A stretch of DNA of 21,198 nucleotides. Origin: Chitinivibrionia bacterium (GTDB lineage: Bacteria; Fibrobacterota; Chitinivibrionia; Chitinivibrionales; Chitinivibrionaceae). The position numbers and the translations under genes are program-made. Positions 2,171 to 13,721 of the stretch are shown here, piece after piece. Below the pieces are notes generated by a model that worked only from the letters and a program-made list of their open reading frames with translations, was not told the DNA's origin and searched no databases. The DNA is taken from NCBI GenBank assembly GCA_009787445.1, contig WRFX01000025.1, positions 1 to 21,198 of the forward strand, given 5' to 3'. Each line of letters starts with the position of its first letter. Within the stretch, counting starts at the first letter, position 1.

Positions 2171-2417
2171 CTTTTTTCGTATTCTTTTCAAAACAAATAT
2201 TATATTGCTCCCGACTTCCGAAGAAATTGGCAGAGGCTGCGGACAGATAAGTTACGGCGGTTTGGTATTCAATATGCAAGACGGAACGATGGAAAAAAGA
2301 GCTGGCGACGACGTGAACAAGTAGATATATGCCGCGCTTGTCGGCGGTTTTGAGAAAATTTGTGTGTTTTTTCGGGGGCGTATTTTGCGGTACGTCCTTT
2401 TTTTTGTTTGGCGTATA

Positions 2418-2457: not shown

Positions 2458-2493
2458 ATGAAAACAAGTAAAAATAGAATGTTAAAGATATGA
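2458..2493 (+). CDS. 11-codon upstream ORF (MKTSKNRMLKI) translationally coupled to the methyltransferase gene
   Basis: A strong SD sequence AAGGGAG lies 7 nt upstream of the ATG at 2458. The stop TGA at 2491-2493 overlaps the mod ATG at 2490 (ATGA). The large gene has no SD of its own. The promoter motif at 2418-2440 lies directly upstream. Confidence 0.3.
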   Translation: MKTSKNRMLKI

Positions 2494-5400
2494 TGAAAAA
2501 CACAAGCGTAAACGAAAAATTGAATCGATTTGTCGAACTTTTGGAGGGCATATTTGAACTCGACAAAGCGGATTTGGACTTCGGCATTTACCGCGTTATG
2601 AATATTCGCAAAGACGAGATAAAAAATTTTCTCTCCGACAACTTGCCGAGAAAAATACGGGAAACTCTTGCCCCGTTCGCCGCTAATACCGAAACGCTTA
2701 CCGCTCGCATTGCCGAGATTGAAAAACAAGCCGCCGACCTTGACATAGAAATAACCGCAAGCCCGAAATTATCCGGCGAATATTCCCGTCTCAAATCGCA
2801 ACTTGCGGCTGGTGTGGATTTATCCGCCCTTGAAACGGACGTATATTCCGCTCTGTACAGTTTTTTCAACCGCTACTACGACGAAGGCGATTTTCTTTCC
2901 AAACGCCGCTACAAAGAGGGCGTATACGCAATACCTTACGAAGGCGAAGAGGTAAAACTTCACTGGGCAAACGCCGACCAGTATTATATAAAAACCGCCG
3001 AAAATTTCCGCGATTATTCATTTATCGTCGATAATAAAAAAGTACATTTTATACTCGTTGAAGCGACAACCGAAAAAAATAACAACAAAGAATCAAACGG
3101 CAACGGGCGTACTTTTATGCTATATACGGAAACCGCCGACAGCCCCGACGTTAAAACGATAGAAGGAATAGACGGCGAACTTATCATACGTTTTGTATAT
3201 AACATTCCCGAAGATAAAAAAAGAAATTACGCCGAAGAAAACCTTGCCGCCATAAAGGAGAATATTCATAAAAACTTTCCCGACTTTCAACGTTTACTCG
3301 CGGCAGTTTCCGAAAAAGATAACCGCTCGTTGCTCCAAAAACACTTGACCGCATACGTAGCAAAAAATACGTTTGATTACTTCATTCATAAAGACCTGAA
3401 CGGCTTTTTGACTCGCGAACTTGATTTTTTCATAAAAAGCGAAGTTATTTGTCTCGACGACATCGACACAACCGATGAAAAACGCGTCGAAAGTTACCTT
3501 GCAAAAGTGCGGGCTATAAAGCGCGTCGGAAAAATTATAATTGAATTTTTGTCGCAGATTGAGGAATTTCAGAAAAAACTGTATCTCAAGAAAAAATTCG
3601 TCGTGGAAACAAACTGGTGCTTAACGCTTGACCGCGTAGATGAAAGTTTTTATTCCGAAATAATTGAAAATACAGCGCAGATTGCCGAGTGGCGGGATAT
3701 GTATGCCATTGACGAAATACAAGAAAATTTATCCGCGGCAGTGTATTGCGACCCGCTGACAATTGAATTTCTGCGGCAAAACTCAAACCTTGTACTTGAC
3801 ACACGGCACTTCTCCGCAGATTTTAAAGACCGTCTTGTAGCAAGTATTGATAATTTGGACGAACAGACGGGGGGCTTGCTGATTCACAGCGAAAATTTTC
3901 AGGCGTTGGGATTGTTGCAGGAGAGGTATCGTGGGCAGATTAAGTGCGTCTATATTGACCCGCCGTATAATACCGATGCAAACAGCATTTTATATAAGAA
4001 CGGGTATAAGGATAGCTCTTGGATTAGCTTAATTCAAGATAGACTCCTATTAACAAATATTCTTATGCGTGAAGATTGCCCGATTATTGTAGCTATTGAT
4101 AGTGCAGAACAAGCAGAATTAAAACTTCTATTATCACAGATATATGTAAATTGTGATATTGATTGTGTTGCTATTGTTCATAATCCTAGAGGGATAATAG
4201 GCACAAACTTTTCTTATACCCACGAATATGCTATATTTGTATCGCCAAAAGGGAAAAAGATTGTAGGCAATAAAAAAATAGAACTGGCTGATATTGATTG
4301 GTCTCCCTTGCGAAATTGGGGCGGCGAATCATTAAGAACCGATGCAAAAAATTGTTTTTACCCTATAATAGTTGAAAATGATACCATAATTGGTTTTGGG
4401 GACATATGCGATGATGATTATCATCCAAATCAAACTGAAAAAATCGGAAATCAATTTTTTGTGTACCCTATCGACCAAAATGGTGTTGAACGCAAGTGGC
4501 GTTATGCGAGGCAAACTATTGACACAATTTTCAATTTAATTAAGGCAAAAAAAACAAAAAACGGTTATGATATAGAATTAGGCAAAGATTTTAGCTTGTA
4601 TAAATCCAGTTGGACGGAATCAAAATACGATGCGAGTGTAAATGGAACTCAGCTGATACAATCCATAATTGGCGACAATCCTTTTACATTTCCTAAATCT
4701 TTGTATACTGTTATAGATTGTATTTCTTCTACGACCACTAGTAATTCTATCATCCTCGACTACTTCGCCGGTAGCGGCACCACCGGTCACGCGGTAATAA
4801 ACCTGAACCGCCAAGACAACGGCAACCGCAAATACATCCTCGTGGAAATGGGCGAATACTTCAGCACGGTAATGCTCCCGCGAATGAAAAAAGTCATCTA
4901 TTCCACCGATTGGAAAAACGGCAAGCCGCAAAACCGCAATACCGGCGTAAGCCACATTATGAAGTATTTTACGCTGGAAAGTTACGAGGACGCGCTTTCC
5001 AATATAACGCTTGACGACGATAAACACGAATTGTCGTTAAAATTCGGCGACGAGTATATGGTGCGGTATATGTTTGATTATGAAGCGAAAAACAGTATGC
5101 TCAACCTTGACTTGTTCGCTATGCCTTTCGATTACAAACTGAAAATCAACGAGAACAACGAAACAAAAGAAAAAACCGCCGATTTGTGCGAGACATTTAA
5201 TTATCTTGTCGGATTATCGGTAATAAAACAATCGACGAAAGAATATTTTTCAGCCGACGACGACCCTGACGGCGAGTACGAAAACGCCGTTAGATTGGAA
5301 CCGAATAAAGACGGTAAATTCGTTTTCAAACGGATTGAAGGGAAACTGCCGGATGGCAGACGCGCGCTCGTTATTTGGCGCGTTATTACAGACGATTTAC

Positions 5401-5591
5401 TTAAAAGCAACGCCGCGCTTGACGCGTATTTTTCAAAAAGCAAAAACAATTTTACATACCGCGAATTTGACTTAATATTTGTCAACGGCGACAATAATCT
5501 CGAAAACCTGCGCCGCGACGACGAGAATTGGAAAGTACGGCGCATAGAACCCGTATTCAAAACAAAGATGTTTGAGGCGGCGCAATTTTGA
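2490..5591 (+). CDS. mod: Type III Mod-like beta-class N6-adenine (or N4-cytosine) DNA methyltransferase with ~450-aa N-terminal extension, 1033 aa
   Basis: Motif IV is present as IKCVYIDPPYNT (D490-Y493) and is preceded by LLIHSENFQALGLL. Motif I (SAM-binding) is present as ILDYFAGSGTT (aa ~757). The order IV-TRD-I defines the beta class. A ~260-aa variable region between the motifs is the target-recognition domain (TRD). The stop overlaps the start of the downstream helicase gene. Confidence 0.85.
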   Translation: MMKNTSVNEKLNRFVELLEGIFELDKADLDFGIYRVMNIRKDEIKNFLSDNLPRKIRETLAPFAANTETLTARIAEIEKQAADLDIEITASPKLSGEYSRLKSQLAAGVDLSALETDVYSALYSFFNRYYDEGDFLSKRRYKEGVYAIPYEGEEVKLHWANADQYYIKTAENFRDYSFIVDNKKVHFILVEATTEKNNNKESNGNGRTFMLYTETADSPDVKTIEGIDGELIIRFVYNIPEDKKRNYAEENLAAIKENIHKNFPDFQRLLAAVSEKDNRSLLQKHLTAYVAKNTFDYFIHKDLNGFLTRELDFFIKSEVICLDDIDTTDEKRVESYLAKVRAIKRVGKIIIEFLSQIEEFQKKLYLKKKFVVETNWCLTLDRVDESFYSEIIENTAQIAEWRDMYAIDEIQENLSAAVYCDPLTIEFLRQNSNLVLDTRHFSADFKDRLVASIDNLDEQTGGLLIHSENFQALGLLQERYRGQIKCVYIDPPYNTDANSILYKNGYKDSSWISLIQDRLLLTNILMREDCPIIVAIDSAEQAELKLLLSQIYVNCDIDCVAIVHNPRGIIGTNFSYTHEYAIFVSPKGKKIVGNKKIELADIDWSPLRNWGGESLRTDAKNCFYPIIVENDTIIGFGDICDDDYHPNQTEKIGNQFFVYPIDQNGVERKWRYARQTIDTIFNLIKAKKTKNGYDIELGKDFSLYKSSWTESKYDASVNGTQLIQSIIGDNPFTFPKSLYTVIDCISSTTTSNSIILDYFAGSGTTGHAVINLNRQDNGNRKYILVEMGEYFSTVMLPRMKKVIYSTDWKNGKPQNRNTGVSHIMKYFTLESYEDALSNITLDDDKHELSLKFGDEYMVRYMFDYEAKNSMLNLDLFAMPFDYKLKINENNETKEKTADLCETFNYLVGLSVIKQSTKEYFSADDDPDGEYENAVRLEPNKDGKFVFKRIEGKLPDGRRALVIWRVITDDLLKSNAALDAYFSKSKNNFTYREFDLIFVNGDNNLENLRRDDENWKVRRIEPVFKTKMFEAAQF

Positions 5592-8500
5592 CAAACAAAA
5601 ACGCGGCTTTTTCTAATTTTCAATGGAGCGAACAACTTGTATTGTTTCGTTATTTTCTTTATCTGTTCGGCAAAAATACGCTTGCCGGACTTGCGGGAAA
5701 TATGAACAATTCGGAATATGAAGGCGTTAATGAAAATCAGAATACGTTTTTTTATGACGAATTAGACGGCGTTTTGTCGCGATACGGCGCGAACGCAAAG
5801 GTAAGCCGCGACGCGCTTCGCGAATACGACGAGAATATTTGCCGCTACGTTAAACAAATTGGCGAGAATCGCGGCGGCATTAAACTGAAATATTTTCAGT
5901 ATATCGCGTGTTTATTTACCGAAATATATCTTGACCGTTATTTTACGGACAAAACCGGATTTGCGGAAGAATTAAACGAATTTTCGAAAAAAGTAAAAAA
6001 AGAAAGTTCCGGCTCGATAGACATTGAACAATTCACGCCCGCAAATATGAATAAACTGGCTTTTATGTGCGCCACGGGCAGCGGCAAAACGCTTATTATG
6101 CATATAAATATTTTGCAATTTTCATATTATCTTAAAAAGGCGAAAATGTTTAATCCGCGTATAAATATTAACAAGATTATCGTTCTTGCGCCGAACGAAG
6201 GAATGTCCCAACAACATTTGGCGGAACTTTATTTGTCGCGCATATCGGCGGAGATGTTCGTAAAAAGCGGTTTCGGCAATAGCGCCGATGTGGTCATCGT
6301 AGATATGAACAAACTAAAAGAGGAAGGTAAGGTAAAAACCGTTTCCGTCGACAGTTTTGAACAGAACAATCTCGTGCTTGTGGACGAGGCGCATCGCGGG
6401 CTTGCCGGCGACGTGTGGTACGATTACCGCTCGCGTCTTTCGGCGGAAGGCGGCTTTGCGTTTGAATATTCCGCCACGCTTAAACAGGCGATGAAAACGC
6501 TGAACGTTAAAAAAGACAAAACGCTTCTCGACGAGTATTTCCGTTCGATTATCATTGACTATTCGTATAAATTCTTTTACGAAGACGGTTACGGCAAAGA
6601 ATACCGAATTTATAATCTGCAAGACAGTATAGACGATGAACAGCGGCAATTATATCTTACGGGATGTTTGTTGTCGTTTTATCAACAACTGAAATTATTT
6701 GCGCAAAAAGTCAAGGAGTATGCGCCGTTTAGTTTGGAAAAGCCGCTGCTTGTTTTTGTCGGCAATCGCGTAACTGCAAAAACGTCCGCCGCCGAGATGA
6801 CCGACGTCGAGGAAGTTTTGGACTTTATCGATAAATTCGCGCATAACAGGGAACGAACGATAGGTCGGATAAACGCCGTTTTAAACGAAGACACGGGACT
6901 TACGGACAGCCGCGGACGCGAACTGTTTTCGCAAAATTTCAACGCCTTATTTTCGCTGTTCGGCGCCGCGCCAAAAGCGGAGGACGTTTATAAAGATATT
7001 TTGCGCGTCGTGTTCAACAGCGATACGGTATCCGACGAATTGCGTTTGCATCTCTTAAACTTGCGTCAAGTGCAAGGCGAAATAGCGTTGCGTATAGGAA
7101 AAGACGGCAAGTATTTCGGCGTGATAAGTATCGGGGATACTTCGGGACTTATTAAAAACTGCGAGGCAAAGGGTATTTTTGCCGAAACGGAGGAATTTGT
7201 CAATGAATCGCTGTTTGGAAATATTAACGAAAAAGTATCTAATATTAACGTTCTTATCGGTTCGCGCAAATTTAGCGAAGGATGGAACTCGTGGCGCGTT
7301 TCGACTATGGGACTTATTAACTTCGCGAAGAGCGAAGGGTCTCAGGCAATACAACTTTTCGGTCGCGGCGTGCGGTTGCGCGGATACGGCGGCTGCCTGA
7401 AACGAAGCGGCAAATTAGACGACCGTTCTATTGTTGCGCCGAAAAACATAGAATTGCTCGAAACTTTGACAATATTCGGTATCAAGGCGAAGTATATGGA
7501 AGATTTCAAAAGACATCTTGAAATAGAAGGTATGCCCGTCAACGAGAAACCTCGCGAATACGCGCTACCGGTTATAAGCCGATACGGTGAAATTAAAGAT
7601 AAAAAACTCCGCGTAATTAAGGTTAAAGACGGCGCGAATTTTAAGAAACAGGCGGCGCGGCTAATGCTAGCGGCGCCGGACGAAGGGTTTTTACGTTATT
7701 TGAACGGAAACAAAGCGATTATTGACTGCCGTTCAAAAGTGCAAACGCTGGAATCCGCGTCGAATGAAAGAATACAATTAGCGCCAAGCGAATATACTAT
7801 TGACGAAAAGTATATTCCGTTTCTTGATTACGAGCGAATTTTTGACGAATTACAAACTTATAAAAACGCTAAACTTTATTATAATATTTCTTTGTCTAAA
7901 GACAAAATAAAGGCAATTTTGCTGACGGACGGATGGTACGGGCTTATTATCCCCCCAAGCCATATAAATATCGACAGCATAGAAAAACTTTCTTTAAATA
8001 CCGATTTTGCAATAATGGTATTAAAAATTTATATCGACAAATTTTACAAATACGAAAAAGACCGATGGGAAACCCCGCGGCTCGAATATCAGGAATTGGA
8101 CGAAAACGACAATAATTTTGTCGACGAATACAAATTCTCCTGTTACGGTAATGACGGCGCCGACTCCGTTGCAGATACTGTGGAGCAGTTTGTCAAGGAC
8201 TTGAACGTGCTACTAAAACAGCATAACGGTATTCCGGCATACGAGAATAGTATATTGAACGGCGCGCTTGTCGCTTTTGACTTTCGGCAACATTTGTACA
8301 CGCCGCTTATATCCAAAGCAGGCGACTTAAAATTGACCGTATCTCCCGTAAGTTTGAACGACGACGAGAAAAAATTTGTCGACAAACTGAAATACTATGT
8401 CGACGATAACGTCGATATGTTCGACGGCAAAACATTATATCTGCTCCGCAATAAGAGCAAAATAGGTATGGGCTTTTTTGAAGCGGGCAATTTTTATCCC

Positions 8501-8827
8501 GACTATGTACTTTGGATAGATACGCCAAAAATACAATATGTTTCCTTCATTGACCCGAAAGGACTGCGCCATATACAATGGGACGACCCAAAAATCGAAT
8601 TTTATGCCGCAATAAAAAATCTTGAAACCAGATTGCAGCCGTCAAGCGCCGATAAACAAATTGTGTTGAACTCGTTTATAATGTCCGCTACACGTTGCGA
8701 AGACCTGCGTCAATGGTGGGGCAAGGATATGGCGCAACGCCGCGCCAAGAATGTATTCTGCCTCGACGAGAGCGATTGCATTGAGGGAATGTTCGAGTTA
8801 ATTAAAGATAATTTTAAGAAAACGTAA
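5588..8827 (+). CDS. res: Type III Res-like SF2 DEAH-box helicase with C-terminal PD-(D/E)xK endonuclease motif, 1079 aa (alternative ATG start at 5702)
   Basis: The Walker A motif is CATGSGKTL (aa ~162-168). Motif II is LVLVDEAHRG (DEAH at 266-269). Motif III is YSATL. Motif VI is QLFGRGVRLRG (~aa 589). The C-terminal sequence FYPDYVLWID...VSFIDPKG gives a PD-(x16)-DxK nuclease signature (aa ~971-991). The TTG at 5588 follows GAGG at 10-nt spacing and overlaps the mod stop (tTGA). The first in-frame ATG is at 5702. Confidence 0.85.
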   Translation: MTNKNAAFSNFQWSEQLVLFRYFLYLFGKNTLAGLAGNMNNSEYEGVNENQNTFFYDELDGVLSRYGANAKVSRDALREYDENICRYVKQIGENRGGIKLKYFQYIACLFTEIYLDRYFTDKTGFAEELNEFSKKVKKESSGSIDIEQFTPANMNKLAFMCATGSGKTLIMHINILQFSYYLKKAKMFNPRININKIIVLAPNEGMSQQHLAELYLSRISAEMFVKSGFGNSADVVIVDMNKLKEEGKVKTVSVDSFEQNNLVLVDEAHRGLAGDVWYDYRSRLSAEGGFAFEYSATLKQAMKTLNVKKDKTLLDEYFRSIIIDYSYKFFYEDGYGKEYRIYNLQDSIDDEQRQLYLTGCLLSFYQQLKLFAQKVKEYAPFSLEKPLLVFVGNRVTAKTSAAEMTDVEEVLDFIDKFAHNRERTIGRINAVLNEDTGLTDSRGRELFSQNFNALFSLFGAAPKAEDVYKDILRVVFNSDTVSDELRLHLLNLRQVQGEIALRIGKDGKYFGVISIGDTSGLIKNCEAKGIFAETEEFVNESLFGNINEKVSNINVLIGSRKFSEGWNSWRVSTMGLINFAKSEGSQAIQLFGRGVRLRGYGGCLKRSGKLDDRSIVAPKNIELLETLTIFGIKAKYMEDFKRHLEIEGMPVNEKPREYALPVISRYGEIKDKKLRVIKVKDGANFKKQAARLMLAAPDEGFLRYLNGNKAIIDCRSKVQTLESASNERIQLAPSEYTIDEKYIPFLDYERIFDELQTYKNAKLYYNISLSKDKIKAILLTDGWYGLIIPPSHINIDSIEKLSLNTDFAIMVLKIYIDKFYKYEKDRWETPRLEYQELDENDNNFVDEYKFSCYGNDGADSVADTVEQFVKDLNVLLKQHNGIPAYENSILNGALVAFDFRQHLYTPLISKAGDLKLTVSPVSLNDDEKKFVDKLKYYVDDNVDMFDGKTLYLLRNKSKIGMGFFEAGNFYPDYVLWIDTPKIQYVSFIDPKGLRHIQWDDPKIEFYAAIKNLETRLQPSSADKQIVLNSFIMSATRCEDLRQWWGKDMAQRRAKNVFCLDESDCIEGMFELIKDNFKKT

Positions 8828-10140: not shown

Positions 10141-11574
10141 TCATTTCGGCGGTTGTTTTTTGTCGCTTTTTAATTTTTCAAGTAGTCCGTCGACAAGAAC
10201 GCTACCTGTTTCCGATTGCTTTAATCCTTCAATAAACCCGACAAGTCCCGAACCGCCTTTACTTGAAACAATATCTTTTACACTGCTCATACCCGATTGA
10301 ACGTCGCCCGAATTTGCGAGTATTTTCACGTCCGCCGTCGTCAACGCCTTTGCGTATTCGATGCCTATGTCTTTATTGACTTTCAAAGTTTCAATTTGAA
10401 CCAAATAATTTTGATATCCTTCGTTTTCGCCGATTGATTTCGCCAATTCGGTTTGCGCGGTAACGGACGCCAACTGTTTCAATTTTTCTGCCTCCGCTTC
10501 TGCCGCGCCCACGTTTTTAATTGCTTCCGCGTTGCCTTTCCCCGTCAATTTAATACCTTCCGCCTCTTTTTCTTTTTCGATTAAAGCCGCTTCCGCCAAC
10601 TGCTGTTTTTCGTATTTTTTAGCGTCCGCTTCAATTTGTATGTTCCTTTGCTTCGCTTCCGCGTCGACAATCAACGCTTCCTTTTCAATTTCCGCTTTAC
10701 GAACCTGATTTACTCGAATTACTTCCATTTTTTTCGATTCGGTTTCTTTCATCTGCTCTTGGACTTTCTGTTCAGACAACTGTTGCGCCACGCCGATTTC
10801 TTTGTTCGCCTCCGCTTGAGCCACGCCGATTTTTTGGTCGGATTGAGCGTTCGCTTCGCCCGTCTCGCGATTTGCCACCGCCTGTTTTACGGCAACTTCT
10901 TTTTGTGCTTCGATTTCGGCTTCTTGCGCGAGTTTCATATTTTTTGCGACTTCAACCCGCGATTCCATTTCGATGTTCGATTTCTTTTTAGCCATTATAT
11001 TGGCGATTACGTTAGAGTCGAGCGTATCGCGAATATCCATAAGTTCGATAGGTTTTACCGCCGCCACTCCCCAATTTTCCAAATCGTCCTGAACGTCTTT
11101 TGTGAACTGCGAGCCGTATACGCTTCTTTCCTGCATAATGAGTTCCAATTCGGATTTTGCCAAAATTGACCGAACCGAGCCCTGCACAATTCCGAGCAAT
11201 TGGTCTTTAAGTTCCTTAAACGACTCGACTTTTTGAGCCGCGACGTTCGTATCCGATATTCTGAAAAACGCTTTAACGTCTATCAAAAACGGAACTCTGT
11301 TGTTGTCGTAAGCCGAATAATTTATCAAATCCAAATCGAAGTTGCTTACGGGCAATACGCGGACGTCAATTCCAAAAAACGGCATCCATTTTGGAAAATG
11401 ATAATACACGTTTCCCGCTTTTTGCCCTGCTCCGTAAGAAACAGTTTTTTTTGTTCTTTGAACGATATGAACCACATTTGTAGGCACTATTCTGCGAAGC
11501 GTCAAAATCCATACGAAAATTGCCAATGCTATCAAAACAACGATAAAAATTGAAAATCCAATCAATCCTTCCAT
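10141..11574 (-). CDS. Flotillin / SPFH (band 7) family membrane protein, 477 aa
   Basis: An AAGGAG RBS lies 8 nt upstream on the - strand. There is an N-terminal TM helix (IGFSIFIVVLIALAIFVWIL) and an SPFH-domain core. An E/A/K/Q-rich coiled-coil region is followed by a C-terminal tail typical of FloT/YqiK-type flotillins. Confidence 0.8.
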   Translation of the reverse strand: MEGLIGFSIFIVVLIALAIFVWILTLRRIVPTNVVHIVQRTKKTVSYGAGQKAGNVYYHFPKWMPFFGIDVRVLPVSNFDLDLINYSAYDNNRVPFLIDVKAFFRISDTNVAAQKVESFKELKDQLLGIVQGSVRSILAKSELELIMQERSVYGSQFTKDVQDDLENWGVAAVKPIELMDIRDTLDSNVIANIMAKKKSNIEMESRVEVAKNMKLAQEAEIEAQKEVAVKQAVANRETGEANAQSDQKIGVAQAEANKEIGVAQQLSEQKVQEQMKETESKKMEVIRVNQVRKAEIEKEALIVDAEAKQRNIQIEADAKKYEKQQLAEAALIEKEKEAEGIKLTGKGNAEAIKNVGAAEAEAEKLKQLASVTAQTELAKSIGENEGYQNYLVQIETLKVNKDIGIEYAKALTTADVKILANSGDVQSGMSSVKDIVSSKGGSGLVGFIEGLKQSETGSVLVDGLLEKLKSDKKQPPK

Positions 11575-11607
11575 ATATAAATTCTCCTTAAATATCTAAC
11601 AATTTAA

Positions 11608-11633
11608 CCGCACTAAAATAATATTTGCCCGAC
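11608..11633 (-). promoter_or_regulatory. Recurrent promoter-like motif, instance on the - strand (gtcGGGCAAATATTATTTTAgtgcgg), upstream of flotillin
   Basis: The reverse complement of 11608-11633 matches the consensus ~35 nt upstream of the flotillin ATG. Confidence 0.4.
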
Positions 11634-11662
11634 TTGTTTTGAACAAAATTATTCTAATAATA

Positions 11663-13306
11663 TTAAAACAATCCGCTAATTACACCTTTGTCGTCCACGT
11701 CTATCATTTCCGCCGCGGGATTTTTGGGAAGTCCCGGCATTGTCATTATATCGCCCGCTATCGCTACGACGAATCCCGCGCCCGCCGATAGCCGAATTTG
11801 GCGAACGTTTATTTTAAAACCCGTCGGCGCGCAAATCTTTTTTGCGTTGTCCGTAAAAGAATACTGCGTTTTCGCGATACATACGGGAAGCGAGCCGTAG
11901 CCGAGTTTTTCGATATTCTTTATCTGCCTCGTCGCTTCAGCCGAAAACGTTACTCCGTCCGCGCCGTATATGTTGCGCACTATCGTTTCAATTTTTTCGG
12001 TTACGGGCAAATTCGTATCGTATAAATAGCGGAAATTATTTGGACTGTTAACCGCGCCGAGTATTTTTTCCGCAAGTTCAACTCCGCCTTCGCCGCCGCG
12101 TTCATACACGTCCGAGATAGCGGCGGTCGCCCCGAAACTTTCGGCGGCAACGCAAACGTAATTTAAGTCCTCTTGCGTATCGGACGGAAAACGGTTGATA
12201 GCCGCCACGCACGGAAGTCCGTAGCGTTTCGTCATATTTTCGATATGTCTTTTGAGGTTTGCGACGCCTTCTTTAAGCGAGCCGTCGTCTCCTCCGTGAT
12301 GTTTGAGCGCCCTTACAGTCGCGACGACAACCGCGACAGACGGCTGCAATCCGAACCTGCGGCATTTGACGTCGATAAATTTCTCCGCGCCCAAATCCGC
12401 TCCGAACCCCGCTTCCGTTACGACATAGTCGGCAAGATTTACGGCGGCAAGCGTTGCGGCGGCGCTATTGCATCCGTGCGCGATATTTGCGAACGGTCCG
12501 CCGTGGACGAACGCGGGAGTGTGTTCGAGCGTCTGCACGAGGTTGGGTTTAAGCGCGTCTTTAAGCAAAGTCGTCATCGCTCCGTGCGCGCGCAAATCTC
12601 CCGCGGTAACGGGCGCGCCGCCATACGTATAACCGATAATTATTTTCGACAGGTTTTCTTTCAGCGCGGTTATATTTTCGGAAAGGCAGAACACCGCCAT
12701 AACTTCCGACGCGGCGGTGATATCGAATCCGTCTTCGCGCGGCGTACCGTTTGATTTTCCGTTGAGACCGCCGATATAAAAACGCAGTTGTCTGTCGTTC
12801 AAATCGACCGCCCGCCGCCAAGTTACGCGGCGCGGGTCGATATTCAGCGCGTTTCCTTGCCAGATATGGTTGTCTATCATTGCGGCAAGCAAATTGTTCG
12901 CCGAAGTTATCGCGTGCAAGTCGCCGGTAAAATGCAGGTTTATGTCTTCCATCGGCACTATCTGCGCGTAACCGCCTCCCGCCGCGCCGCCTTTTATCCC
13001 GAACACCGGTCCAAGCGACGGCTCGCGCAGGCAAATTATAACATTCTTTTTAAGCCGCGCCAGCGCATCCCCTATGCCTACGGTCGTGGTGGTTTTGCCT
13101 TCGCCCGCGGGCGTGGGAGTTATCGCCGTTACGAGAATTATTTTCGCGCGCCGTTTGGCGTTTGTCAGCGCGGCGGCATTGAGGTTTAATTTCGCCTTGT
13201 ATTTGCCGTAAAGTTCTATGTCGTTTTCGGCAAGCCCGATTTTTTGCGCTATTGAAGCGATATGTTCCAATTTCGCCTCGCGGTCTATTTCAATGTCGGT
13301 TTTCAT
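11663..13306 (-). CDS. fhs: Formate--tetrahydrofolate ligase (FTHFS), 547 aa
   Basis: The protein begins [12 protein letters not shown]. The motif [19 protein letters not shown] matches the conserved FTHFS nucleotide-binding signature. The start at 13306 is preferred over the upstream ATG at 13375 because a GGGGA RBS lies 6 nt upstream and the length is typical. Confidence 0.9.
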
Positions 13307-13337
13307 AATATATCCCCGTTTTAATATGATAAAAGTT

Positions 13338-13361
13338 ATCGGTAAAATAATATTTGGCGAA
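13338..13361 (-). promoter_or_regulatory. Recurrent promoter-like motif, instance on the - strand (TTCGCCAAATATTATTTTACCGat), upstream of fhs
   Basis: The reverse complement of 13338-13361 matches the consensus ~32 nt upstream of the fhs ATG at 13306. Confidence 0.45.
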
Positions 13362-13460
13362 GTAATTTTTGGCAAAAAGTAAAGCCCATATCGTTTTCGG
13401 CAATAAAATATTTATAATTTTCGATAAATTTCGTAACTCGCTGTTTTTCAAAAAATTATT

Positions 13461-13721
13461 TTATGGAACAATAACCCCAAACGCCGATTTATAAATCTCC
13501 GCTTTTTTTTCTAACGCGAGCGGATAAGCCCTCGACGAAGATGGCATTCTGTATAAACGCAATTCTCTATTTTCAAAAATAAACGAAGTATAAGAACCGA
13601 TTGCGGGCGAAAGTATTTGAATGTTTTTTTCGGCGAATTGTTTGATTATCGTTTCCAACGCTTTTTGCCCTGTTGCGACAATATTTCGGAAACGGGAAAG
13701 TTCTTGAATTATTTTTTTCAT
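13461..13721 (-). pseudogene. C-terminal fragment of a Mug/TDG-family (UDG superfamily) DNA glycosylase
   Basis: The 86-aa ORF ends ...LYRMPSSSRAYPLALEKKAEIYKSAF. This matches the conserved C-terminal motif of the Mug/TDG family (E. coli Mug LPNPSGLS; human TDG MPSSSAR). The N-terminal half carrying the catalytic G(I/V)NPG motif is absent. An in-frame stop lies 4 codons upstream of the ATG. Confidence 0.4.

Follow-up and report, generated by a model that had tools for sequence, protein, structure and literature searches.

We analysed a 21,198-nucleotide (nt) stretch of DNA, referred to here as the window, from a Chitinivibrionia bacterium (contig WRFX01000025.1, positions 1 to 21,198), and focused on the large N-terminal domain of the DNA methyltransferase Mod encoded there by a two-gene restriction-modification (R-M) cassette. 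The mod gene lies at nt 2490-5591 of the forward strand and encodes a 1033-residue "long" Type III Mod that comprises an N-terminal domain (N-domain; aa 1-457, nt 2490-3860), a methyltransferase/target recognition domain (MTase/TRD) cassette and a second extension at the C-terminus (C-domain). It is followed on the same strand by the res gene (nt 5588-8827), which encodes a 1079-aa superfamily 2 (SF2) helicase-nuclease. A preliminary description, made from the letters of the window, had pointed to the N-terminal region as a large module of mixed alpha and beta character with no assignable motif, and this agrees with both the predicted structure and the sequence and fold searches reported below.

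A long Type III Mod with two additional domains

The open reading frame (ORF) at nt 2490-5591 contains 1033 open codons with in-frame stops close upstream, and its product is identical to MCL1946253.1, a "site-specific DNA-methyltransferase" of a Chitinivibrionia metagenome-assembled genome. Because homologues from many phyla align to the window Mod from aa ~7 at 42-74% identity and begin at an equivalent position, we consider the N-terminal region to be translated. The homologue alignment revealed no better internal start, and the scenario in which an internal start would leave the N-terminus untranslated, raised in the preliminary description, thus fell away. The same description had the MTase region opening at aa ~455, which matches the positions of GGLLIHSENFQAL (aa 461-473), DPPY (aa 490-493) and the Pfam N6_N4_Mtase domain (aa 484-791).

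The exchangeable MTase/TRD cassette (aa 458-818, nt 3861-4943, forward strand) has the beta-class N6_N4 order expected of a Type III Mod, with motif IV (DPPY/F) followed by the TRD and motif I (FxGxG), and the fold of the solved Type III Mods. Throughout this work, segment identities are mean pairwise values over 70 full-length Mods. On this measure the N-lobe holding motif IV (aa 458-600) scores 0.38, the hypervariable TRD (aa ~601-735) 0.20 and the C-lobe holding motif I (aa 736-818; DxFxGSGTT, here DYFAGSGTT, aa 757-765) 0.52. Pfam N6_N4_Mtase (PF01555) matches with an E-value of 2.5e-20, and the only other Pfam match to Mod is a sub-threshold one to Cons_hypoth95. The C-domain (aa 819-1033, nt 4944-5588, forward strand; identity 0.48) is a second conserved extension of ~215 aa that was absent from the preliminary description; it has no Pfam match, and the best PDB sequence alignment to a solved Mod stops at aa 844.

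The neighbouring Res matches ResIII/DEAD in Pfam and REase_III PDLC03654 in PADLOC (E 5e-180), and combines an SF2 helicase-like ATPase, with conserved helicase motifs I, II and VI, with a C-terminal PD-(D/E)xK nuclease motif (PDYVLW...FIDPKG). The defining traits of sequence, fold and gene context identify the window system as Type III R-M.

The N-domain contains the most conserved part of Mod

To describe the N-domain we used secondary structure and confidence from two AlphaFold2 (AF2) models, one of the N-terminus alone (predicted local distance difference test, pLDDT, 86.9) and one of full-length Mod (pLDDT 87.3, predicted template modelling score 0.85), together with the alignment. The first segment, N1 (aa 1-129, nt 2490-2876; identity 0.45), is predicted to form a long helical hairpin or stalk whose base is conserved (DLDFGIYR, FFxRYYxxGDF) and whose tip (aa ~60-110) is variable and deleted in one relative (L005). 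It leads into N2 (aa 130-170, nt 2877-2999; GDFxSxRRYKxGVYAIPYEGEEVKLHWANADQYYIKT), a Tyr/Trp- and Glu-rich segment that no other part of Mod equals in conservation (identity 0.80) and that is modelled at a pLDDT of only ~49-55. The following N3-N4 region (aa 171-292, nt 3000-3365) consists of an antiparallel beta subdomain with an invariant E195/N198/K200 loop (TEQNNNK; N3, aa 171-240, identity 0.45) and then variable helices (N4, aa 241-292, identity 0.37). The last part, N5-N6 (aa 293-457, nt 3366-3860; like all of these segments on the forward strand), carries NTFDYFIHKDLxGFLxRELDFYIKxEV ... FLxQxExFQKKLWLKKKFVV ... LxxDT; N5 (aa 293-380, NTFDYFIHKDLGGFLRRELDFYIKNEV ... FQKKLWLKKKFVV) reaches an identity of 0.68 and N6 (aa 381-457) one of 0.49.

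Low pLDDT is confined to N2 and the TEQNNNK loop, and may arise from near-invariant columns that carry no covariation signal. In the full-length model, aa 370-480 are placed at pLDDT 93-98 (76 at aa ~411-420), and N6 mostly attains 93-98 in this context only. This rise in confidence suggests that aa ~370-457 pack against the MTase domain.

Two stretches of the N-domain exceed the catalytic lobes in identity (0.80 for aa 130-170 and 0.68 for aa 293-380, versus 0.38 and 0.52 for the MTase lobes), and therefore the most constrained part of Mod is not its catalytic part. At 48 polar or aromatic positions of the N-domain, among them 10 Tyr and 3 Trp, conservation is 93% or higher, and conserved residues cluster at E153-E154-x-K156, D163-Q164-Y165-Y166-x-K168 and D296-Y-F-I-H300-K301. 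The domain is net acidic, with a median charge of -13 and an isoelectric point (pI) of 5.3.

No described domain or fold matches the N-domain

Residues 1-457 gave no Pfam match at E<=0.1, no NCBIfam match, no meaningful PHROG match and no PDB sequence match, and a profile built from 39 N-domain sequences likewise found nothing among PDB sequences. Even at E<=1, no Pfam family was matched by more than 2 of the 39 homologues, and no Walker, nuclease, MTase or other catalytic profile matched these diverse members. The fold search proposed in the preliminary description, run with Foldseek on the confident AF2 model of the N-domain, returned nothing from the PDB at E<=0.001. In hhalign comparisons, the N-domain showed no relationship to whole Res, its nuclease domain, the C-domain or the SNF2 helicase encoded upstream of many relatives (probabilities <4%), nor to the N-terminus of Res. 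In all, ~640 of the 1033 Mod residues have no structural precedent in the PDB. A literature search found no named domain, no characterised member of the long clade and no SNF2-Mod-Res arrangement, with a coverage that was incomplete and so gives no proof of absence.

The preliminary description had also noted a D-x9-E...K arrangement (FIVD...LVEATTEK) as a weak hint of a nuclease-like core. We rejected this motif because its residues are not conserved: D181 lies in an indel-rich variable segment, E191 varies between E, D, A and K, and K196 varies between K, Q, R and H, leaving E195 as the only invariant residue of that stretch.

A widespread clade of long Type III systems shares the extension

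The preliminary description had contrasted the N-terminal extension with canonical Mods, but the extension proved to be common. PADLOC MTase_III PDLC03646, a model of 1057 positions, matches aa 10-911 of the window Mod over profile positions 3-956 (E 7e-202); for the N-terminus by itself the match spans positions 3-467 (E 2e-98). The profile search that it had proposed accordingly gave a divided answer, as the region is a common Mod-associated one, covered by the PADLOC Type III model and shared by thousands of proteins, but corresponds to no named or described domain in Pfam, NCBIfam or the PDB. A phmmer search with aa 1-457 retrieved 2460 representatives of 50%-identity clusters (917 at E<=1e-30), and most full-length matches measured 980-1170 aa. 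When one genome per species was scanned, at least 554 of these genomes carried confirmed loci, with Bacillota, Bacteroidota, Pseudomonadota, Planctomycetota, Nitrospirota, Spirochaetota, Actinomycetota and further phyla represented. The N-domain was also found on 29 plasmids, some of them of the IncF type from Klebsiella and E. coli; with regard to a phage origin, there was no match among INPHARED phages, and 31 loci were in IMG/VR.

Among 80 fetched loci, all that were sufficiently long encode a Mod composed of N-domain, MTase and C-domain, with a cognate long Res downstream; Mod measures ~1000-1100 aa and Res, where complete, ~1050-1250 aa. Judged from these comparisons, the N-terminal extension is no local fusion but a family trait, the hallmark of a large clade of long Type III systems.

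In 61 of 81 determinable loci a gene for an SNF2-family helicase lies directly upstream of mod on the same strand, 41 times within 100 bp. The encoded proteins (~950-1000 aa) match Pfam SNF2-rel_dom and Helicase_C, and their best PADLOC match is DrmD PDLC02619 (E 1e-196 to 1e-207). The gene is absent from 20 loci and from the window, which represents the two-gene form. Examples of the three-gene SNF2-Mod-Res operon have their SNF2 gene at L001 5163-7994 and L086 5977-8937. The N-domain is conserved to the same degree without SNF2 as with it (0.77 versus 0.81 for aa 130-170; 0.67 versus 0.70 for aa 293-380), and therefore is not merely an SNF2 dock.

Other genes accompany some of these loci. 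A small helix-turn-helix (HTH) gene stands in front at some of them (HTH_26 in L086 and L085), and a 117-aa ORF stands in front at L081-84 and L087, with a weak HTH_31 match seen in L087 only. A gap of 0.8-4.6 kb separates mod from res in 31 of the 80 loci (for instance L003 11340-13191, L053 10942-14309, L041 11094-13715 and L015 10253-12139), and all gaps but one contain ORFs. Those scanned encode an AAA_21/AAA_15 ATPase with DUF4276, two GmrSD-type proteins, an SMC-like ATPase of ~870-945 aa and an SLFN/AlbA_2 protein with HATPase_c_4. Comparable insertions also occur between SNF2 and mod.

The N- and C-domains track Res while the MTase/TRD cassette is exchanged

We compared pairwise-distance matrices over 48 loci with full-length Mod and Res, and over 37 loci where SNF2 was included. 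Distances of the N-domain and of Res were strongly correlated (r 0.88, Mantel p=0.0005), as were those of the C-domain and Res (r 0.86) and of the N- and C-domains (r 0.83). SNF2 distances followed those of Res, the C-domain and the N-domain at r 0.84, 0.77 and 0.69, respectively. In contrast, the MTase/TRD cassette did not co-vary with Res (r 0.10, p=0.07), and its r with the N-domain was 0.18. Sliding windows of 50 aa gave the same picture along the protein, with r to Res at 0.43-0.77 over aa 1-450, ~0 over aa 451-825 and 0.53-0.75 over aa 826-1033. Since N1 windows of merely 32-38% identity still correlate with Res at r ~0.6-0.7, saturation is not the cause of the drop within the cassette. 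The N- and C-domains thus share the history of Res, and of SNF2 where present, and the history of the cassette is independent of it.

Individual pairs of loci display this exchange directly. L010 and L013 are 89% identical in the N-domain, the C-domain and Res alike versus 29% in the cassette; L062 and L063 are 92%, 87% and 95% identical in the same three regions versus 37%; and L053 and L064 are 95% identical in both the N- and C-domains versus 45%. On the 5' side the swaps break at aa ~470-490, just inside the N-domain/MTase junction, and on the 3' side at aa ~750-815. The exchanged unit (aa ~470-815, nt ~3900-4935 of the window) thereby takes in most of the catalytic N-lobe and the TRD in most pairs, and motif I in some. 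As these alignments read, the MTase/TRD cassette is replaced wholesale by recombination between systems that are otherwise ~90% identical.

Nearly all close homologues from gut metagenomes (P0001-P0120) are truncated at 450-800 aa, and the six truncated homologues that we inspected end after the N-domain, inside the MTase N-lobe or inside the TRD. Such truncations fit assemblies that break where strains share an N-domain but carry different MTase/TRD cassettes.

Split, fused and rearranged relatives

In a human-gut lineage (P0065; 76 sequences, 5 contigs read), a 1-nt deletion that changes ACTAATGG to ACTATGG splits Mod into a 461-aa N-domain ORF, which ends ~2 residues before the MTase region, and a 594-aa MTase ORF, with a TGATGA stop/start overlap between them (L081 8370-8395; also L083 and L084). 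The MTase ORF and the downstream Res are intact, and the unsplit relative is P0081. A further contig, L082, carries the same 461-aa ORF with the MTase ORF starting ~150 nt downstream. Such an arrangement would be consistent with the N-domain acting as a subunit of its own. Stand-alone N-domain proteins of ~430-480 aa otherwise look mostly like products of frameshift or truncation, and P0065 is the only reproducible split.

One protein (P0119; L087 2215-4047) has its N-domain fused to Abi_C in place of the MTase, and is followed by a truncated 490-aa Res. Because it occurs on a single contig with a truncated Res, we take it to be probably a rearranged locus; if the fusion is genuine, it would join the N-domain to another effector. 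At a Terriglobia locus (L069 7872-12233), the N-domain and most of the MTase continue into the C-terminal half of Res within one 1454-aa ORF. Both the Mod C-domain and aa ~1-557 of Res, its N-terminal half, are missing, and the ORF appears to have arisen as a deletion fusion.

Gene arrangement and surroundings in the window

The res TTG start at nt 5588-5591 overlaps the mod TGA stop (TTTGA) and is preceded ~10 nt upstream by GAGG, which suggests that res is translationally coupled to mod. Upstream, the sole good Shine-Dalgarno sequence (AAAGGGAG) precedes an 11-codon mini-ORF (nt 2458-2493, forward strand; MKTSKNRMLKI*) whose TGA overlaps the mod ATGATG, unlike SNF2-less relatives, in which a Shine-Dalgarno sequence lies directly in front of mod. 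The mini-ORF may be a translational-coupling leader or the leftover of a lost upstream gene, and we are uncertain of its role. Neither mod nor res contains a simple-sequence repeat of the phase-variation type, the only arrays being two weak ones of 8-9 bp in 2-4 copies.

The R-M cassette sits between housekeeping regions, with a sugar-nucleotidyltransferase-like gene upstream and hisE and hisG downstream. A terminator-like hairpin with a T-run (nt 2374-2409, forward strand) separates it from the upstream gene. Farther along the window, GC content rises to 0.48-0.55 at nt 11500-13500, compared with ~0.40 elsewhere, over a 570-aa minus-strand ORF (nt 11663-13375).

A candidate adaptor frame and its alternatives

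We tentatively favour, at somewhat less than an even chance, a reading in which an exchangeable MTase cassette is joined to the motor-nuclease by a constant adaptor frame, made up of the N- and C-domains, which also couples site recognition to the ATPase and nuclease. Such a frame would hold Res, together with SNF2 where there is one, with the invariant patches at aa 130-170 and aa 293-380 as the probable points of contact, and would relay the state of Mod bound at an unmethylated site to the ATPase/nuclease. It would have no part in sequence recognition, and the N-domain would not itself be the nuclease. The recognition sequence is not expected to be the partner of the invariant N-domain surface, because such a partner must itself be invariant, and the acidity of the N-domain makes a protein-protein module a better fit than a general DNA-binding domain. 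The preliminary description had left a choice among reader, sensor, second catalytic and regulatory roles; a regulatory or coupling module now fits best because the N-domain follows Res, not the MTase core, in its evolution, and the other roles are less favoured. Some considerations weigh against the adaptor frame. Co-inheritance with Res could arise simply if recombination were limited to the cassette, with no contact between the N-domain and Res; conservation at the level of aa 130-170 (E153, E154, K156, D163, Q164 and K168, with 10 invariant Tyr across the domain) would suit a catalytic or ligand site; and the split P0065 lineage might be a pseudogene.

The N-domain could alternatively be a ligand-binding or catalytic module of new fold, such as a modification reader, a nucleotide or S-adenosylmethionine sensor or a new hydrolase, which would endow the clade with an activity absent from canonical Type III enzymes. 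Its extreme polar and aromatic conservation, above that of the MTase catalytic lobes, is what one would expect here, and the poor modelling in isolation of its two most conserved loops would suit a site organised by its ligand. However, that low pLDDT may merely reflect the near-invariant columns noted above, neither a catalytic profile nor a fold was matched, and the ATPase and nuclease are already supplied by Res, so we regard this explanation as unlikely. Another explanation, in which the N-domain is a PD-(D/E)xK-type nuclease, could draw on a conserved E115 ... D134 ... E154-V-K156 arrangement; yet this falls where AF2 confidence is low and has no fold or profile support, there is no conserved triad at D181/E191/K196 and no nuclease profile or fold match, and we find it highly improbable.

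The N-domain could instead serve Mod itself, by mediating dimerisation or by clamping DNA non-specifically so that two Mod protomers are placed on it, with its co-inheritance with Res being incidental. Type III Mods act as dimers, EcoP15I being Mod2Res1 (PMC4490356); the long hairpin at aa 41-129 and the long helix at aa 330-366 of the AF2 model are typical of oligomerisation, and there is a local basic patch (KKLWLKKKF), with a pI of 8-9 over N4-N5. A module dedicated to the MTase should, however, travel with the cassette, whereas the N-domain stays with Res when the cassette is replaced; moreover, the domain is acidic overall and the hairpin tip is variable and dispensable, as in L005. We consider a role of this kind doubtful. 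Finally, the N-domain might be a docking site solely for the upstream DrmD-like SNF2 helicase, which is immediately upstream in most determinable loci and whose distances do correlate with those of the N-domain. This is disfavoured by the equal conservation of the N-domain in the window and the 20 other SNF2-less loci, and the correlations of SNF2 with the C-domain and Res are no weaker, making an SNF2-only dock very unlikely.

If the adaptor frame is correct, it would explain how specificity changes without re-evolving the Mod-Res interface, and the frame would be a natural chassis for specificity engineering. It would also mark the stretches at aa 130-170 and aa 293-380 as the surfaces to mutate for uncoupling methylation from restriction.

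Comparison with known systems

Type III enzymes are understood almost wholly from systems of the EcoP1I/EcoP15I type, whose Mod is ~640 aa long. Their biochemical hallmarks are hemimethylation of an asymmetric site, ATP-dependent cleavage requiring two unmethylated sites in inverse orientation, and a Mod2Res1-2 stoichiometry. The long clade is at least as widespread as these, and nearly two thirds of its Mod is uncharacterised yet more constrained than the catalytic core. The solved Type III Mods (EcoP15I 4ZCF, Mbo45V 7DSU and Helicobacter 6K0W) account for ~390 of the 1033 residues of the window Mod and have no counterpart of its ~455-aa N-domain or ~215-aa C-domain. The SNF2 gene that is the usual third gene in long-clade relatives, and is absent from the window, is a further difference from canonical Type III systems. 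Within PADLOC, the window system belongs to both the MTase_III PDLC03646 and REase_III PDLC03654 families, and an E. coli/Klebsiella plasmid homologue of its Mod matches PDLC03646 end to end; these models are unannotated detection hidden Markov models that neither delimit nor explain the N-domain.

A constant frame with a central specificity segment exchanged by recombination is likewise found in the modA alleles of Haemophilus and Neisseria and in Type I HsdS, and the shuffling or exchange of TRDs in Type III mod alleles and HsdS is a general principle (PMC1557822, PMC5909438). In comparison with modA and HsdS, the unit exchanged in the long clade usually adds most of the catalytic N-lobe and sometimes motif I, and the constant frame consists of two non-catalytic domains that track Res. 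Four features set the system apart from every Type III enzyme of characterised structure or biochemistry that we found: the two large non-catalytic Mod domains, the usual SNF2 gene (absent from the window), the larger swapped unit and the Res-tracking frame.

The pairing of an SNF2 gene with a large MTase in the relatives of the window is shared with DISARM class 1 (DrmD-DrmMI), BREX type 3 (BrxHII-PglXI) and ARMADA (ArmA-ArmB). The window differs from these in having no SNF2, in that its MTase is a Type III Mod (PF01555) and in that its effector is a Type III Res. The DrmMI model was not among the 24 PADLOC families matching the Mod of the plasmid homologue, and PADLOC and Pfam scans of the flanking ORFs that we checked found no DISARM or BREX core proteins. 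Of the DISARM class 1 set (DrmA, DrmB with DUF1998, DrmC with PLD, DrmD and DrmMI), only a DrmD-like SNF2 is present, and in relatives only. A more ambitious proposal, to which we assign a low probability, is that the N-domain with the C-domain would be a new-fold sensor or enzyme, or the hub of a machine with three motor components, so that SNF2, long Mod and long Res would make up a distinct defence class linking Type III R-M to DISARM/BREX/ARMADA modules, with the window as its minimal two-gene form. The frequency of a DrmD-like SNF2 partner suggests that Type III R-M is mechanistically linked to the SNF2-MTase pairs of these newer defence systems.

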